Assembly (NCBI GenBank): GCA_050273025.1
Contig: CP158635.1
Span: 7,998,001 to 8,062,000, forward strand
Direction: 5' to 3'
DNA: 64,000 nt
Source: Cenococcum geophilum
Lineage: Eukaryota
The translations under genes and the position numbers were made by a program. This document shows, piece after piece, positions 24,424 to 41,301 of this stretch. The stretch's first letter is position 1. Every line of letters starts with the position of its first letter. A model generated the notes under the pieces. That model was not told the DNA's origin, made no database searches, and saw only the letters and a program-made list of their open reading frames with translations.

Positions 24424-25056
24424 ATCACCTACGTTATAACTGTCTTACACTAACCTATTGGCCTTCCTCACTTGCTCCCGAAGAGTCACCACCGGCTGCT
24501 CGCTATGGCGCCCTTTTCCCTCCTAACTACACCGCTAAGTGTGATTTCTTCTACTTTAACCCTCCTCTTCCAGCTCCTTTACAGGCCTAGTGCCGCATTT
24601 CCTCGCTGTGTCTCGTCTCCCGTCTCCTTTACAGACGCCGTTTCAGCCCTATTGCCTTACGTTTCGTGCATAAATTGTCGCTCACTTATCTTAGAAAACT
24701 GCCATTGTGCCCCGTCCAGCCGTCCAGGCAAGGCCAGACCTAACTATACCCTAACATTATCACAAGCAAATCTAAGGGTGTTGTTAGGTTTAAGTTCTAG
24801 AGACATCTTATGAAGGCATAAAAGTTAACCTAACCGGCCAGTATCTACTTGCCTACACCTACCTACTAGCGTCCTCCTCGTTTATTACAGTACACTTAAA
24901 CCTAGCATATCATCGACACATCCGAGCTATTCCGGAACGCCTATACACAAAATTTCCTTAGGGATCAATAGTTCTTCTTATCTTTAATCATTTTCTACTG
25001 GACAGCAGCGCTTGTCGCTTTTTAATTACTTCCACAACAGAGCAGTGTATCTTACG

Positions 25057-26037
25057 ATGCGTATACCACAGCACATACAGCAAGCCGTTGCGCTGTTTCT
25101 CCCCCTCTGGGCAACCGCTGCTACCGCTATCTCCCTCTCAAACTTTACACCTCGCATTAATGACCTCCCGTCCGCCTGCAATACCGTCTACACACAAGCA
25201 ATCCCAGGATGCCAGGTATCCGATTTCACGGCAAACGCACAATGCTCAAAAGCCTGCATAAATGGACTGGTTCAAATCAGCGCTGAGGTGAATTCGCAGT
25301 GCGCGAACGCAGACGTGCCCGAGACCTCGATAATCGGTGTATTCCTGCTGGGCCAAGGCATCCCGGCGCTCTGCAACAACACCCAGGTGACGACGGCCCC
25401 CGCAACCACACAGGACGGGCCTCTCACCACAGGCAAACCCATCACCTATACCGTAACGGCCCCCAGCGGCGCCATCGTCACCACGACCGCCGCGCCGATC
25501 GGCGGCAATGGCGAGACCAACTCCGGTGGCAAGAGCGGCACCAACATCGCCGCCATCATCGCCGCCGTTATCGCCGGCGTCCTTGCGATCGTCGCTGCCT
25601 ACTTCGCGTTCTGCGCCTGGGTCTACCGCAAGCAGCTCATCCTGTACAAGAACCACGCTGCGATGGCGCAGCGCGCGGCGACCGACCCGGCGCGCGCGGA
25701 GAAGGACGCGTTCATGCTGGCGCCATCGTCGTCGGCGGGCACAGGCGGACGCGATGCGGGGTCGGCGGTTGGGTCGTCGGGGGCTGGGAGCAGGCCGAGC
25801 AGGCCGAGCGGGACGAGCGGCTGGAATACGGGCGGGAGCGGGAGCGGGAGCGGGAGCGATGGGATTGCGGTTGCGGGTGGCGCGGGAGCGGGGAATGGTG
25901 GTAGTTTGGGGAGGAGGAGGAGCAGCTCGGGGAGTTCGACGGATGATTTGTTGGCGGGGCAGGAGCCGGCGTTTTGGGGGAGTAGGGGCGTGTTGCTGAA
26001 TCCGAGGAGGAGTTTAAGGGTTATTAATTGGGATTAA
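25057..26037 (+). CDS. 326-aa signal peptide + 6-Cys extracellular domain + Thr-rich stalk + single TM helix + Gly/Ser-rich cytoplasmic tail (type I membrane protein)
   Basis: ATG at 25057 (the ORF track starts at an upstream TTG). Signal peptide MRIPQHIQQAVALFLPLWATAATA; six Cys in the following ~85 aa; TM segment IAAIIAAVIAGVLAIVAAYFAFCAWVY followed by RKQ; C-terminus LLAGQEPAFWGSRGVLLNPRRSLRVINWD. GC-rich and not RIPed. Confidence 0.8.
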   Translation: MRIPQHIQQAVALFLPLWATAATAISLSNFTPRINDLPSACNTVYTQAIPGCQVSDFTANAQCSKACINGLVQISAEVNSQCANADVPETSIIGVFLLGQGIPALCNNTQVTTAPATTQDGPLTTGKPITYTVTAPSGAIVTTTAAPIGGNGETNSGGKSGTNIAAIIAAVIAGVLAIVAAYFAFCAWVYRKQLILYKNHAAMAQRAATDPARAEKDAFMLAPSSSAGTGGRDAGSAVGSSGAGSRPSRPSGTSGWNTGGSGSGSGSDGIAVAGGAGAGNGGSLGRRRSSSGSSTDDLLAGQEPAFWGSRGVLLNPRRSLRVINWD

Positions 26038-28482: not shown

Positions 28483-31024
28483 CTACCAGGTCGAAAACGA
28501 TTCGCCTTTGGAGTGTACGGTGTGAGCATAGTTCCAGAAGTCGCCATTGGCGCCAAAACCAGACGCATCACCACGCAGCGAGACATTCGAAGGTATCTTG
28601 CGCAGACCACTGCGTGGAACAGCCAAGGATTCTGCGCCGCTTCCCTGCTTGATGATATTAGAGACAACCGGGCTAACAGCCTTAATAATTTGAGGAGCAG
28701 CCTTCATGACGACAGGGCCAACCTTGCGAACCACGGAGGCCATGATATCGAAGAATCCTTCCTCTTCAAGGATATGTTGCGGAGCCTTCATGGCAGCCTG
28801 CAGAGCAGCCTCACCAAGCACAGCACGCTCGCGTAGGCCCTCCATAGGCGCCATGACAGGTGGGGCTTCATCCGCAATGTCGGACTCTGTGAGAGCATGC
28901 TGCAACAAAGGCAGGCCATGCTTGGCGACCTCCATGAGAACAGGACTCTTGATAGCCTTGGAAGCAATCCCTCCAAGGAAGTCGAAGAATCCCTCAGAAT
29001 CCTCGCTGCTGGCAGCAGCCAGACGAGCCATGAAAGCCTCAGATCCAGAATCGGCAGCCAGATGAAGAGACTTCCGGGCTCCAGTGTGAGGTCGCCGAGC
29101 TCCACTTGGGGCAGATGCTCCGCCTGGGATAAGTGCTCCGCCTGTAGGAGCATAAAATCCTTCAGCGCCCCCATGCGGCCCTTTCTGGAGCGCATCCAAA
29201 GCTAGTCGCAGTGTCGGCTCCGCAACTACATCCAGGACCTTCGGCGCGACATTCTTAACTACCGAGCCGACCCTGCTGATAACCTTCCTCATGTCGTCGA
29301 AGAAGCCCTCCTCAGCCAATTTTTGCTTGTCCATCTTCATCATAGCCGTGAAAGCCGCTTCAGCAAGGATGGCGCGTTCAGCCACTCCTTCAGTTGGATC
29401 GCCAAAGCTTTCGGCGCCTGTGTGGGACTCAGCGAGCTTGCCCGCAGCGGAGATGGCAACGCTAGCTAACGCGCCAACGGGACCGCCCAGAGGGCCAAGT
29501 ACCATAGGCAATCCCGTGCTGAGGACGCTGTTCAGGAGCGGGCCACCGATCTTCACACCTTGCTTCAAGAAGTCGAAGAACCCTTCTTCGTCGAGAGAGC
29601 GACCGGATGAAAAAACGTTGCGCGGATGGCTGTACAGATCATGGTCTCGTGTGACGTTTATCGTTGGGCTATGTTTGTTTCCGTGGTGACCTGAGTGGCT
29701 GACATAGGACTCATGACCTCCGTTATGATGACCTCCGTTATGATGACCTCCGTTATGATGACCTCCATCGTGATGGCCTCCGTTATGATGGTTTCCGTTG
29801 CCATAATGGTTCCCATTGAAGTTACGAGTACCATTGTGGCCGTAGTTAGCCGTTTGATCGCTACTGTAGTTGGAATGGTCAAAGCCGTGCTCACGGGTGA
29901 ATCTACCGATGCCACCATGGGTGAGGTCGACAGGGCCCTTAAGAACATCTGGAGTCTTTGACGTTGGCACGGTCACATACTGGATGCCGGGAGTCGAAGC
30001 GGCGCCAGGAAGCTGGACCTTGCGCGCATGCAGGTCGAACGCAGCCACATAGTCCAGGAACGGGTTGCCATACATTCCGACTACTGACGCAGAGTTCGGG
30101 TCTCCTCCATATACGTGCACTCCGATAGCAACGTGGTCATTTTCGCGCAAAACTGGGGATCCAGAGTTTCCTTGTACTGTTAGTGCTACGCCGGGACTAT
30201 CTGCGGTAATACGTACCGCCAAAAGTATCGATCTTGTACTCCAACATTCTCCACTGTGATTCGGCAAGGTTGTAGTTCGTTTGCAGAAACATTTCGTACA
30301 TCTCCGCCCCTGGCTCACCTGCCCTGTCCTTCAAATCGCCTGGATAACCGACGACTCCAATAGACAAAGATCCCTGGACAGGGGTATCGGCGAATCTGAA
30401 AGGTTCGATACCGGTGAAAGGTGCTTCAAGTTGGATAAAAGCGACATCGAAGTTTCGATTGCCTTTGGCCGTGAGCCATTCTAAAGTCGTAGCGACTCTT
30501 TTGCCGAAACGAAATTGAACACCAGCCTTAGGATCGTTGATTGATCCTTGACCAGAATATCCAATGTAAGCCTTAACTTGGGCAAGTTGGCCCAAGTTAT
30601 GACCCCAATCGAACGCACAGTGACCAGCAGTCACGAGCAGATCAGGACGGATCAACCACCCTGTTGCAATCGGCCATTTAGCATTAGGCTTTTGCTTCTC
30701 ATAACGGCAGAAAAGCTTGACAATTGCTAGCGTTTTGTCAGTACATATTTTTCTACGGTTATAGAAGTACTCACAGCGGTATTTTCCACCAGGCATGAAA
30801 TGCTGAGGCGGGACCTTCTGACGCTCATCGTCCCCAACAACCGATTCGGCGCCAGCGTTAGTGAAACTGAAGGATTCTGCAGAGGGGACCTTGTTGCTGG
30901 TGGATTCGAGATCCCAGAGCGGAACAATGGTGTCCGTCAACTTATTTTTCGTTGCTGTGTTTCGAAGGCCCACTAAGCCGATGCTTTCAAGGGGGGCACT
31001 CTGAGTAGCTGATATAGGAGACAT
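28483..31024 (-). CDS. 815-aa V8/glutamyl-endopeptidase-like (trypsin-fold) serine protease fused to a C-terminal repeat region with four EGFFD amphipathic peptides; exons 31024-30775, 30726-30217, 30170-28483
   Basis: ATG at 31024. Intron 1 is 30774-30727 (GTGAGT...CTGAC...TAG, 48 nt, in frame); intron 2 is 30216-30171 (GTACGT...CTAAC...AAG, 46 nt). The spliced length is 250+510+1688=2448 nt, one open frame. Catalytic motifs are LVTAGHC, NFDVAFI and DTFGGNSGSPV (the last restored by splicing). The S1 Thr (DT) and His (IGVHVYG) match V8-type Glu-specific proteases. The putative mature N-terminus AE|SVVGDDERQKV resembles Bacillus glutamyl endopeptidase SVIGSDDR. Confidence 0.92.
29713..29790 (-). 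repeat. 15-bp coding minisatellite encoding (HHNGG)n in the protease linker
   Basis: Plus-strand atgatgacctccgtt units, about 5 copies; translates on the minus strand as HHNGGHHDGGHHNGGHHNGGHHNGGH. Confidence 0.9.
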
Positions 31025-38594: not shown

Positions 38595-41301
38595 CATCGG
38601 GAAAATATTCGCAGGATGAGATTTAAGTAGACTTTAGTTTTCGCGTTTCGCGTAATTAACATGCAATTTAACTAACTTAACACGCAATTAACTAACTTAA
38701 TATACAATTAACCAACTTAATATGCAATTTAATTAACTTAACACGTAGTTGACCTACTTAATATATAATTTAACTAACTTAACACACAATTGACTTACTT
38801 AATATATAGTTAACCTACTTAACAACTTTAAAAGCTAACTGTATATTTCTTAACGTGCGATTAAGGTAAAGTTATATACTATATATTTAACTATTATATA
38901 TAATCCTATACAATCTTATACAATCTCATACAATCTTATAGTCTTATTACTTGGAGGCTCTGCACGAGGCTCTATACGAAGCTCTACGTATAGAGGCTCT
39001 GCACGAAGCTCTACGTATAGAGGCTCTGCATAAAGCTTTGCACGAAGCTTCGCATAAGGCTCTTCACGAGGCTCTACACGAAGCTCTGCGTACAGAGGCT
39101 CTGCACGAAGCTCTGCACGAAGCTCTGCACGAAGCTCTGCACGAAGCTCTGCACGAAGCTCTACACGAAGCTCTGCACGAAGCTCTGCACGAAGCTCTGC
39201 ACGAAGCTCTGTACGAAGCTCTACACGAGGCTCTGCACGAGGCTCTGCGCGAGGCTCTGCGCGAAGCTCTGCGTACAGAGGCTCTGCACAAGGCTCTGCG
39301 AGAAGCTCTGCGTACAGAGGCTCTGCACGAGGCTCTGCGCGAAGCTCTGCGTACAGAGGCTCTACACGAAGCTCTGCATCGGGTCCCCGCTATATTCCTA
39401 ATAGCCTCTACACGTGCCTCTACCCTATATAACCACCTTATTTTTTACCCTTCCTTTCTTCTTTATATCCTCCCTACCTAGGGAGGTACCAAAACGGTAG
39501 CTAGTAGAGAACTATTACTAGAACTAGACGACCGTCGCTAAAACTAGATAACCATTACTAAAACTAGACGACTATTACTAGCTAAACAACCGTCGCCAGA
39601 ACTAGACGACTGTCGCTAAAACTAAATAACCATTACTAGCTAGATAACCGTTACCAGAACTAGACAACTATTGCTAAAGCTAGACGACTATCGCCAGAAC
39701 TAAATAACCGTTGCTAGCGCTAGACGACCGTTACTAGAACTAAATAACCGTTGCTAGCTAGACGACTATTACTAGAACTAGATAACCGTTGCTAAAGCCA
39801 AACAACCGTCGCTAGAACTAGACGACTATTACTAGTACTAGACGACTGTTGCTAGAACTAGACAACCGTCGCTGGCTAAATAACCATTACTAGAACTAGA
39901 CGATTATTACTAGAGCTAGATAACCGTTGCTAAAACTAGACAACCGTTACTAAAACTAGATAACCGTTACTAGCGTTAAACGACCGTTGCTAGAACTAAA
40001 CAACCGTTGCTAGCTAGACAACCGTTACTAGAATTAGATAACTATTACTAAAGCTAAACAATTGTCGCCAGAACTAGACGACTATTGCTAGCGCTAGACG
40101 ACCGTCGCTAGAACTAGACAATCGTCGCTAGCTAGATAACTATTACTAGAACTAGATAACCGTTGCTAAAGCTAGACAACCGTTACTAAAACTAGATAAC
40201 CGTTGCTAGAACTAGACAACCGTCGCTAAAACTAAATAACCGTCGCTAAAACTAGACAACCGTTGCCAGCTAGATGACCGTTACTAAAACTAGATAATTA
40301 TTGCCAGAGCTAGACGACCGTCGCTAAAACTAGACAACCGTTACTAGCGCTAGATAACCGTTACTAGAACTAGATAACCGTTGCTAGCTAGATAACCGTT
40401 ACTAGAACTAGACGACCGTTGCCAGAGCTAGATAACTATTGCTAGAACTAGACAACCGTCGCTAGAGCTAGATAATAATAACTAGCCAGCTAATACTATA
40501 AACGATTTAATTAATTAATCGAATTAAGGTAATATAGACAGGTAGGCATAAATAGGTAGATATTAACGGGTTAGGTAAATATAGACAAGTAGGTAGATAT
40601 AGATAGGTAAGTAAATATAGATAGGTAGGCAGATATAGACAGATAAGTAGATATAGATAGGCAAGCAGATATAAATAGGTAGGTAAATACTAACGGGTAG
40701 GTAGATATAAATAGGTAAGTAAATGCAGATAAGTAGATATAGATAAGTAGGTAGATATAGATAGGTAAGTAGATATAGATAAGTAAGCAAATATAGATAG
40801 GTAGATAGATACTAACGGGTAGGTAAATATAAATAGGTAGGTAAATGTAGATAGGTAGGTAAATACAAATAGGTAGATATAGATAGGTAGGTAATATAGA
40901 TAGGTAGGTAGATACAAATAGGTAGGTAATGTAGGCAGGTAGGTAAGTTAATAGGTATAGTAAATAGGTAGAAAAGAACCATCGCTATATTATAATAAAT
41001 TATCTAAAATAATAATATTTATTTTGCTAGCCTTATAAATAGCTTTAAAATAGCTTTTATTTATTTAAAATATGTTATTAGTATAAAAGAGGTAAATATA
41101 ATTATGGTTGCTAAATACGCAGATTGCTGGTAGGTTGCGCGTAGGTTACGCGTAGGTTGCGCGCAGGCTGCGCGCAGGCTGCGTGTCAAAAAAACATAAC
41201 ATAGGCTAGTCGGTCGAGTTGCCAAATGCCCTCAACTGCGCGCCAATTGCGTCAACCACCAACCACTGAGGCCATTGAAAGGGTACTATATTTTGCCGAT
41301 A
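38595..41301. mobile_element. Non-autonomous ~2.7-kb TIR element with TA TSD, filled with minisatellites, inserted in the 3' LTR of Gypsy A
   Basis: TIRs CATCGGGAAAATAT / ATATTTTGCCGATA. The empty site in the sister LTR is taactaactagcttcttc (56691-56708), so TA is duplicated. Arrays: ~20-bp ttaacacgcaatttaactaac, 12-bp cacgaagctctg (38955-39378), ~20-bp ctagaactagacgaccgtcg (39500-40470), and taggtagata microsatellite (40540-40970). Confidence 0.85.

Follow-up and report, generated by a model that had tools for sequence, protein, structure and literature searches.

A fungal gene for a V8-like glutamyl endopeptidase that may carry its own substrate: a candidate self-processing family in Pezizomycotina

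Introduction

Could a single fungal gene encode both a protease and the substrate that the protease cuts? This question is raised by a gene on the minus strand (31024-28483) of a 64,000-nucleotide stretch of Cenococcum geophilum DNA, hereafter the window (contig CP158635.1 of assembly GCA_050273025.1, positions 7,998,001 to 8,062,000 of the forward strand). Its predicted product of 815 residues joins a trypsin-fold protease to a long tail in which the motif E|GFFD occurs four times (the bar marks a predicted cut). An earlier note on this DNA had proposed that the protease is Glu-specific and cuts its own tail to release membrane-active peptides.

Here, we argue with moderate confidence that the gene encodes an intracellular, Glu-specific zymogen of the V8/Bacillus type (S1B) that would carry its own substrate, with the tail as the cargo. 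The argument is built on the match of the protease to bacterial glutamyl endopeptidases, on the conservation of Glu at the predicted cut sites among homologues, and on the tendency of these Glu residues to be lost in relatives whose protease is broken.

Results

Gene model and transcription

The gene is transcribed and its model is established. The coding sequence of 2448 nt, which translates into 815 residues, lies on three minus-strand exons (31024-30775, 30726-30217 and 30170-28483, the last including the stop). Spliced contigs of the metatranscriptome run X6 carry both joints, with skips of 46 and 48 nt and ends reading CT..AC on the plus strand, and contigs of two other runs, X1 and X2, hold the unspliced form with the introns retained. 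The gene stretch is present in 18 sequencing runs from 12 studies, and 8 of the runs are recorded as RNA. In the raw reads of RNA run X19, 10 matching reads were found, mostly 95-99% alike, which are too few for strand or level. The gene and its introns are as follows.

28483..31024, minus strand: whole gene, from open reading frames and sequence, splicing and translation, with both joints in RNA contigs of run X6
30727..30774, minus strand: intron 1, 48 nt, GTGAGT...CTGAC...TAG, in frame, from the sequence, with the joint 30726 to 30775 in an X6 contig
30171..30216, minus strand: intron 2, 46 nt, GTACGT...CTAAC...AAG, splitting the GG|NSGSP active-site motif, from the sequence, with the X6 contig joint at 30169 to 30216 (cut +1)

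The protease resembles bacterial glutamyl endopeptidases

The N-terminal half of the protein is divided as follows.

30845..31024, minus strand: N-terminal pro-segment, residues 1-60, last residue Glu60, predicted activation cut E60|S61, from Glu conservation, alignment to mature 1p3c and the homologue model
30031..30844, minus strand: glutamyl-endopeptidase-like trypsin-fold domain, residues 61 to about 300, spanning both introns, from Pfam, PDB profile matches and Foldseek of the homologue model
29713..29808, minus strand: His/Asn/Gly-rich repeat in a disordered linker (linker residues 301-449), from the translation, the homologue model and RNA contig breaks

By every feature tested in sequence and fold comparison, the protease is a V8-like glutamyl endopeptidase (S1B), with a predicted preference for Glu. 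The motifs TAGHC, FDVA, DTFGGNSGSPV and IGVHVYG, which the earlier note had read in the translation, are all present. Alignment to the motifs of V8 and of the Bacillus intermedius enzyme (1p3c) places the catalytic triad at H119 (TAGHC), D177 (NFDVAF) and S256 (GGNSGSP), equivalent to His57, Asp102 and Ser195, and the S1-pocket residues at T251 (DTFGGNSGSPV) and H272 (IGVHVYGG), equivalent to Thr190 and His213. Within this alignment DTFGGNSGSPV and IGVHVYGG pair with STTGGNSGSPV and IGIHWGG of V8. Thr190 and His213 in the S1 pocket have a role in the recognition of Glu.

Profile searches point to the same group of enzymes. The product of exon 2 matched the Pfam families Trypsin_2 (PF13365, 30.9 bits against a cut-off of 27.6) and Trypsin (PF00089, 22.4 bits against 20.6), both of which are also carried by the full-length homologues. 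When a profile of 32 homologues was searched against the PDB, all eight matches with E <= 2.4e-7 were glutamyl endopeptidases, led by V8 (1qy6, 2.9e-9) and followed by 1wcz, 6tya, 6u1b, 4jcn and 1p3c, with GluSE/Esp and the Bacillus intermedius enzyme among them. For the structure comparison we used an AlphaFold2 model of the whole protein of the closest named homologue, P0011 from Trichoglossum, which has a mean predicted local distance difference test score (pLDDT) of 67.8 and scores of mostly 85-96 in the protease part. Foldseek ranked 1p3c first (E 2.8e-10, template modelling (TM) score 0.83 on the target) and V8 1qy6 second. The earlier grouping of the protease with the Glu-specific V8/Bacillus enzymes is thus upheld by the PDB sequence matches, the 1p3c fold match and the Thr190/His213 equivalents.

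Bacterial glutamyl endopeptidases are activated by removal of an N-terminal pro-peptide, and in the literature on 1p3c the mature N-terminus of the bacterial enzymes is reportedly tied to activity. The window protein reads E60|SVVGDDER, and the pattern SV(I/V)GxDxR after Glu aligns from residue 1-2 of mature 1p3c; residues 63-72 of homologue P0014 (VIGDDDRVKV) pair with residues 2-11 of mature 1p3c. Because the following sequence aligns to the mature N-terminus of 1p3c, the 60-residue N-terminal segment sits where a pro-peptide would, and SVVGDDER is a plausible new N-terminus, as had been predicted. Glu is found at this pro-junction in 76 of the 85 aligned family sequences (gaps excluded), and the P0011 model has pLDDT <50 just ahead of the site.

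Between protease and tail lies the linker, with about five GGHHN-like units in its repeat; linker residues 351-434 of the P0011 model have pLDDT <50, as in a disordered segment. Assembled RNA contigs from three runs end at 29713-29757, within the repeat. The His/Asn/Gly tract looks like a metal-binding sequence. His-rich linkers of different sequence are also found in close relatives, and distant relatives are without them.

The tail is a tandem duplication and is predicted to be helical

The tail of about 370 residues contains the four E|GFFD motifs, with Gly at G450, G542, G647 and G725, and a fifth, weaker motif, AE|GFY, at G591. The four segments that begin with GFFD had been described exactly, in sequence and in coordinates (P1 29583-29428, P2 29307-29218, P3 28992-28930, P4 28758-28630). 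Since its two halves are homologous (BLASTP 6e-21, 34% identity), the tail is read as a tandem duplication. Each half consists of an A-type core (GFFD and a hydrophobic stretch rich in Gly and Pro), a spacer helix (ERAILAEAAL) and a B-type core, in which GFFD is followed by a helix of about 40 residues with Pro about every seven residues. That Glu before GFF is conserved in homologues was borne out in 226 aligned family sequences: Glu stands ahead of motifs 1-4 in 172/210, 130/219, 198/219 and 189/215 (gaps excluded).

We modelled the window protein's own tail with AlphaFold2, using 93 sequences. In this model motifs 2 and 4 stand at two-residue helix breaks and motif 3 at a helix start after a loop, and the predicted cut sites coincide with breaks in helices or with loops of low confidence both here and in the P0011 model. 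The parts of the tail are listed below with the evidence for each; the bounds of fragment F1 are the predicted cuts E449|G450 and E507|S508.

29410..29583, minus strand: tail fragment F1, residues 450-507, begins with GFFD, has a hydrophobic core rich in Gly and Pro, ends at GAE|S (E507), from the protease-dependent Glu columns E434 and E492 (P0011 numbering) and hydropathy
29308..29409, minus strand: spacer helix, residues 508-541 (AERAILAEAA...), EE at the end ahead of motif 2, from Glu kept in broken-protease relatives and a high-confidence helix
29161..29307, minus strand: tail fragment F3, residues 542-590, GFFD and an amphipathic helix of about 40 residues punctuated by Pro, ends at GAE|G (E590), from helix H105-144 of the tail model and the E576 column
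28993..29160, minus strand: poorly conserved, partly disordered segment, residues 591-646, ends at E646 ahead of motif 3, from pLDDT <50 at model residues 151-162 and the motif-3 Glu
28759..28992, minus strand: tail fragment F5, residues 647-724, second A-type core and second spacer (ERAVLGEAAL), EEE at the end, from homology to the first tail half and helices H208-222, 226-244 and 257-277
28630..28758, minus strand: tail fragment F6, residues 725-767, GFFD and an amphipathic helix of about 38 residues, net charge +3, ends at GAE|S (E767), from helix H288-325, the motif-4 Glu, charge and hydrophobic moment
28483..28629, minus strand: C-terminal 48 residues and stop, low-confidence, from pLDDT <50 at model residues 334-356

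If our reading is right, the tail would be a new helical domain without a known fold match. A Pfam search assigned it to no family, with TOR1L1_C below threshold (13.6 bits against a cut-off of 27.8). Foldseek of the tail model against the PDB gave no match at E <= 0.001 (best E 0.4), a missing match that does not exclude a family, and VIA-align over 48,161 chains gave none at Z >= 5 (best Z 3.8) and no pore-former or gasdermin fold, an absence that again does not exclude a family. Among viral folds (BFVD) there was likewise no match at E <= 0.001 (best E 0.029), and the best score in the ESM Atlas, 0.83 to unnamed clusters, is below lead level. When the P4 and P1 fragments were searched with phmmer against PDB chains of at least 20 residues, designed helical repeats were met (E 0.07) and the matches were otherwise non-significant. 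The hydrophobic core of F1 (residues 460-498, in 29410-29583 of the minus strand) has a weak, non-significant likeness (E 1.8), probably compositional, to a Gly/Ala/Leu-rich stretch of Nora virus VP4C (5mm2).

Site Glu residues tend to be lost where the protease is broken

A structural cap alone could explain the high conservation of Glu before the motifs, and for this reason we examined whether the site Glu residues depend on the integrity of the protease. All five protease sites were aligned in 96 of the 226 family sequences, which fall into 71 with the canonical residues H-D-T-S-H, 6 with T190S, 4 with S195C and 15 with a broken protease. Glu at the pro-junction is found in 57/57 intact vs 4/11 broken proteins (p 3e-7), at motif 1 in 51/66 vs 5/15 (p 0.0018), at motif 3 in 66/68 vs 6/15 (p 7e-7) and at motif 4 in 59/67 vs 8/14 (p 0.013). 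In the strict catalytic-dead subset (n=12) the counts are 3/9 at the pro-junction, 4/12 at motif 1, 4/12 at motif 3 and 5/11 at motif 4.

The loss is confined to particular columns. When 27 conserved acidic columns were scanned, nine fell in broken proteins: the junction Glu columns E58, E434, E492, E576, E618, E699 and E700 in P0011 numbering, together with two Asp columns, the catalytic one and the neighbour of Thr190. Among the columns that did not fall are E506, E512, E683, E486, E218, E225 and the Asp of GFFD, which include the ERAILAEAAL helices and the protease surface. Relatives with a broken protease keep E506 in 12/15, R507 in 14/15, E512 in 15/15 and R678 in 14/14 cases, and the hydrophobic P2' residues in 15/15, 14/14, 14/15 and 14/14. 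Glu at GAE|S and GAE|G falls in these relatives like the Glu at the motif junctions; in the E576 column (GAE|G) it is present in 40/67 intact vs 3/13 broken proteins.

Shared ancestry was taken into account with a FastTree tree, for which the trait columns were removed from the same alignment; on this tree the broken state changes about 12 times. Of 11 branch-disjoint nearest pairs, 9 favour the intact partner in the number of site Glu residues, 1 favours the broken partner and 1 is tied (sign test p 0.021). In short, site Glu is kept with an intact protease and tends to be lost with a broken one, motif 2 excepted, which is the co-conservation that the earlier note had proposed to look for.

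The pattern suggests cutting at E60|S, E449|G, E507|S, E590|G, E646|G and E724|G, for which the support is good but indirect; the case for E541|G and E767|S is weaker. In four relatives (P0109, P0122, P0142, P0156) the catalytic Ser is replaced by Cys with the other sites intact, and Glu is present at motif 1 in 4/4 and at the pro-junction in 1/3 of them. Cys in place of the catalytic Ser is a feature of viral 3C proteases.

Weighing the evidence against self-cutting and peptide release

Several of our results weigh against this reading. Glu at motif 2 is found in 33/67 intact vs 9/15 broken proteins and so has no protease dependence. A binary independent-pairs test on 9-10 pairs gave about 5.4 pairs in the expected direction, none in the opposite and about 3.6 ties, and with a median p of 0.0625 is not significant; in the binary coding, site Glu is kept in 3/14 broken and lost in 9/67 intact proteins. 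The broken class is small, with 15 members, and among them may be gene-model errors (P0026) and trivial cases, such as P0090 (H213L), in which every Glu remains.

The predicted structure speaks on the same side. The tail model is a confident all-helical domain (mean pLDDT 76.5, predicted TM score (pTM) 0.76, 162 residues with pLDDT >=90), an outcome that the earlier note had named as refuting its proposal, although the prediction is silent on cutting. Before any cut, the GFFD segments most likely form one bundle of helices, not loose peptides on a string. Access for the protease is not assured: the predicted junctions in the tail are 2-4 residues long, and motif 1 lies within a lower-confidence predicted helix (H10-21). 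The further idea that acidic spacers are shredded is not supported, as the Glu residues of ERAILAEAA lie in high-confidence helices and are kept in relatives with a dead protease, and so look structural.

Further results concern the peptide-like properties of the segments. After GFFD, Glu-free runs of 51, 29, 20 and 42 residues extend up to a terminal Glu. The tail has 25 Glu-free runs in all, and these four rank among its five longest. The Glu-free cores are present, but they are not unusual: 8800 of 20000 shuffles of the tail match the summed length of the four longest runs. Except for the Asp of GFFD, the cores are free of both Asp and Glu and so offer no Asp/Glu asymmetry to use. P1-P4 have net charges of +1, +1, 0 and +3 and are at most weakly cationic. 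Their maximal hydrophobic moments in 18-residue windows are 0.53, 0.66, 0.36 and 0.61, values that belong to segments of 21-52 residues that are parts of a predicted folded bundle. A start of the form G-(F/L)-F-D-hydrophobic-hydrophobic-K resembles aurein-type peptides. The predicted fragment ends shift: downstream of cores 1 and 2 it is E507 (GAE|S) and E590 (GAE|G) that depend on the protease, instead of E501 and E571, and in the tail model the P2 helix continues through E571.

Hydropathy peaks at 1.55 at residues 476-494, which is borderline for a membrane span given the usual transmembrane threshold of 1.6. No signal peptide was found, as no hydropathy window in the 815-residue protein reaches >=1.2 outside residues 461-499. 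Lacking a signal peptide, the protein could act as an antimicrobial outside the cell only after lysis or by an unconventional export route. We also thought of N-myristoylation at the Gly residues that cutting would expose and set this idea aside, since the modification disfavours an aromatic residue in position 2.

Distribution of the family and genomic setting

The architecture recurs across Pezizomycotina, as judged from homologous sequences. A search with the tail alone gave 95 proteins, and full-length homologues of 740-925 residues, consisting of Trypsin_2 and the tail, are found in six classes (Geoglosso-, Sordario-, Lecanoro-, Euroti-, Dothideo- and Arthoniomycetes). A profile that also covers the protease, searched against 1.84 billion representatives, gave 1957 matches at E <= 0.001 and 408 at E <= 1e-30, of which the best 150 of 1957 were examined. 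Among the representatives examined and the longer proteins, no true fusion to other domains was found, and in particular none to NLR, HET or gasdermin domains. The search for longer proteins gave one match, a Verticillium protein with a permease and a cutinase that is a merged gene model, and a nonribosomal peptide synthetase fusion (P0126) and a lipase fusion (P0211) also look like merged gene models. A comparison of the window with metagenome loci, three of them distinct (L001 = L002, L003 and L004), found the gene itself as the only shared element and no NLR or gasdermin neighbour. As there are neither fusions nor conserved neighbours, the gene appears to be a self-contained unit.

The number of motifs varies by lineage, and in Apiospora and Neoarthrinium (P0014, P0017, P0020, P0016) a fifth (E)EGFF stands at the extreme C-terminus. 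Family members are currently annotated as 'hypothetical protein', as 'serine protease' or, wrongly, as 'ATP synthase F1'. The last name is carried by the NCBI records P0017, P0020 and P0022 (Apiospora, Seiridium), whose sequences do not support it, and is probably a propagated annotation error. No description of the family was found in the literature searched. In the text of a 2025 review of fungal cell death (PMC12881547) that a term search covered, trypsin-like or glutamyl proteases are not mentioned.

In the window, the gene lies in a GC-rich island of about 8 kb (24-32 kb, GC 0.45-0.55). The flanks (1-24000 and 32000-64000) are AT-rich, with GC mostly about 0.27-0.45 and about 0.28-0.37 in the stretches that border the island, and almost without long open reading frames; of the 10 open reading frames of >=170 residues in the 64-kb window, 9 lie within the island. 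Strong GC and AT skews of opposite sign at 42-50 kb and 50-56 kb suggest an inverted pair of degenerate repeats. A neighbouring open reading frame (24988-26037, plus strand) is hydrophobic at its N-terminus, contains a region with Cys and a single hydrophobic span, carries a long tail rich in Ser and Gly, and matches no Pfam family; nor did the other neighbours of the gene in the window. A match to NNH2 (NACHT-associated) at 38942-39478 was rejected as compositional, being below the cut-off and amid eight other unrelated weak matches.

Discussion

Proposed mechanism

How might such a protein work? On our reading, which we believe and doubt in about equal measure, a cut after Glu60 would activate the enzyme and expose Ser61, which corresponds to the first residue of the bacterial enzymes in their mature form. 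The active enzyme, in cis or between molecules, would then cut the helical tail after the conserved Glu residues at helix junctions, as the covariation suggests. The predicted cuts are E449|G, E507|S, E590|G, E646|G and E724|G, and perhaps E541|G and E767|S, and active molecules could then activate others. The tail would thereby be freed from the protease and nicked into about six helical pieces, among them a Gly/Pro-rich hydrophobic one (residues 450-507) and two long, Pro-punctuated amphipathic helices (residues 542-590 and 725-767).

We argue that the tail, a folded helical bundle before cutting, and not the protease, would be the functional cargo, since it is kept conserved where the protease is dead. 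Cutting could release or unlock it, most likely, if we may speculate, for membrane binding or insertion; insertion after unlocking is suggested by the hydrophobic Gly-rich hairpin that appears to be wrapped by amphipathic helices. Taken to its full extent, the mechanism would be a self-arming, one-gene membrane attack in Pezizomycotina, in which a cytosolic zymogen is activated with positive feedback, cuts its helical bundle and sends a hydrophobic hairpin and amphipathic helices into membranes, an alpha-helical, single-chain counterpart of the protease/gasdermin pairs that would serve cell death or antagonism. This extended version is tentative, and we consider it unlikely in its entirety.

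Alternative explanations

It is conceivable that self-processing is real and that the tail is a disposable C-terminal pro-domain (an inhibitor, chaperone or tether), the freed protease being the effector on other cellular substrates. Autoprocessed N- and C-terminal pro-domains are common in proteases, the pro-junction matches the mature N-terminus of the bacterial enzymes, and such a tail would account equally well for site Glu residues that co-vary with the integrity of the protease. The inhibitor of a dead enzyme should decay, however, whereas relatives with a dead protease keep the non-site residues of the tail. The tail is also long (about 370 residues), conserved at least as well as the protease, internally duplicated and, by prediction, confidently folded. 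We therefore find a disposable tail doubtful.

Alternatively, there may be no self-cleavage at all. The tail would then be a stable helical domain for scaffolding, regulation or membrane/lipid binding, and EEGFFD an acidic helix N-cap with a hydrophobic staple that was repeated by duplication. The confident tail model (pTM 0.76), in which every motif is taken to stand at a helix start, would agree with this, as would the homologous halves, the protease-independent Glu of motif 2 and the median p of 0.0625 in the binary independent-pairs test. Some relatives with a dead protease moreover keep the Glu, such as P0094 with EE|AFFD and EE|NFFD and P0077 with EE|GFFD and AE|GFFD. What speaks for cutting is that a structural cap should not track catalytic residues about 200 residues away, and yet the junction Glu residues fall while the structural Glu and FFD stay. 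The same dependence is seen outside the tail, at the pro-junction (57/57 vs 4/11), and the P1 residue is exactly that preferred by this class of protease. A tail that is never cut thus seems to us rather unlikely.

A third proposal, that the acidic tract with FFD is an FFAT-like motif through which VAP proteins would hold the protein at the endoplasmic reticulum, draws on the two Phe and the Asp after an acidic tract, as in the FFAT consensus, and is very improbable, because that consensus has Ala after the Asp and an acidic last position where the motifs mostly have a bulky hydrophobic residue and Lys, because the motifs begin predicted helices and are not in disordered tracts, and because VAP binding leaves the loss of acidic residues with a dead protease unexplained.

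Comparison with known systems

Returning to the zymogen that would carry its own substrate, its closest counterparts are the enzymes of MEROPS subfamily S1B (V8 1qy6/2o8l of S. aureus, Esp/GluSE of S. epidermidis and 1p3c of Bacillus intermedius). They share with it the trypsin fold, the His/Asp/Ser triad, Thr190 and His213, the motifs GGNSGSPV and G(I/V)HxxGG, the mature N-terminus (S/V)VIGxDxR and activation by removal of a pro-peptide, which is established for the bacterial enzymes and predicted for the fungal one. The fungal protein differs in that it comes from a spliced gene, lacks a signal peptide and has a disordered His-rich linker; its pro-junction has Glu at P1, which suggests self-activation, and the bacterial enzymes are without the conserved helical tail of about 370 residues.

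In its logic the protein resembles viral polyproteins (3C, 3C-like, sobemovirus, barnavirus and arterivirus nsp4), where an embedded trypsin-fold protease cuts (E/Q)|(G/S) junctions of its own precursor, as is predicted here. A Thr/His S1 pocket and a GxHxxG motif are common to the viral Glu/Gln-specific chymotrypsin-like proteases and the fungal protein, and V8-like Glu-specific proteases reportedly occur in barna-like viruses. Here, in contrast, the gene is cellular, has introns, is conserved in Pezizomycotina and encodes neither replicase nor capsid, and no homology of the fungal protein to viral proteins was found. MARTX and large clostridial toxins also combine a protease and a released cargo in one polypeptide; they differ in being bacterial and secreted, with an inositol-phosphate-activated cysteine protease, and have no sequence or fold relation to the fungal protein.

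The precursors processed by Kex2 (Ece1/candidalysin, KEP) and the aurein/citropin precursors of frog skin likewise hold several short amphipathic peptides with acidic stretches between them in one chain. The fungal protein differs from them in having no signal peptide, Glu|Gly or Glu|Ser junctions instead of Lys-Arg, and the protease in the same chain, and its 'peptides' are helices of a predicted folded domain. No homology to the Ece1, KEP or aurein/citropin precursors was found.

With fungal gasdermins the likeness is one of concept, in that a cytosolic protease cut unleashes a membrane-directed protein. The subtilisin HET-Q2 is reported to cut the gasdermin HET-Q1 (Clave et al. 2022, PMC8851545), and other fungal gasdermins are clustered with proteases (PMC12881547). 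Two genes are involved there vs one here, with S8 or CHAT proteases vs S1B, and beta-barrel pores vs a tail predicted to be all-helical. By analogy, then, the whole protein would work like a viral polyprotein or an autoprocessing toxin while being related to none of them, and would resemble the protease/gasdermin pairs in concept only.

Significance

Autoprocessing precursors are a kind of protein already known. What is new here is the tail domain, and our comparisons suggest an undescribed self-processing family. Even on the minimal reading, the result matters for the annotation of the mislabelled genes of this family. If the fuller reading is true, Pezizomycotina would possess a widespread, undescribed family that joins a Glu-specific protease of bacterial type to a conserved substrate of its own. 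This would be the cellular equivalent of the way in which viral polyproteins are processed, and a clean case of protease-substrate co-evolution within one chain. Such a family would be surprising for fungal biology, is directly testable, and may add a new kind of protease-controlled effector in fungal cell death, antagonism or membrane remodelling.

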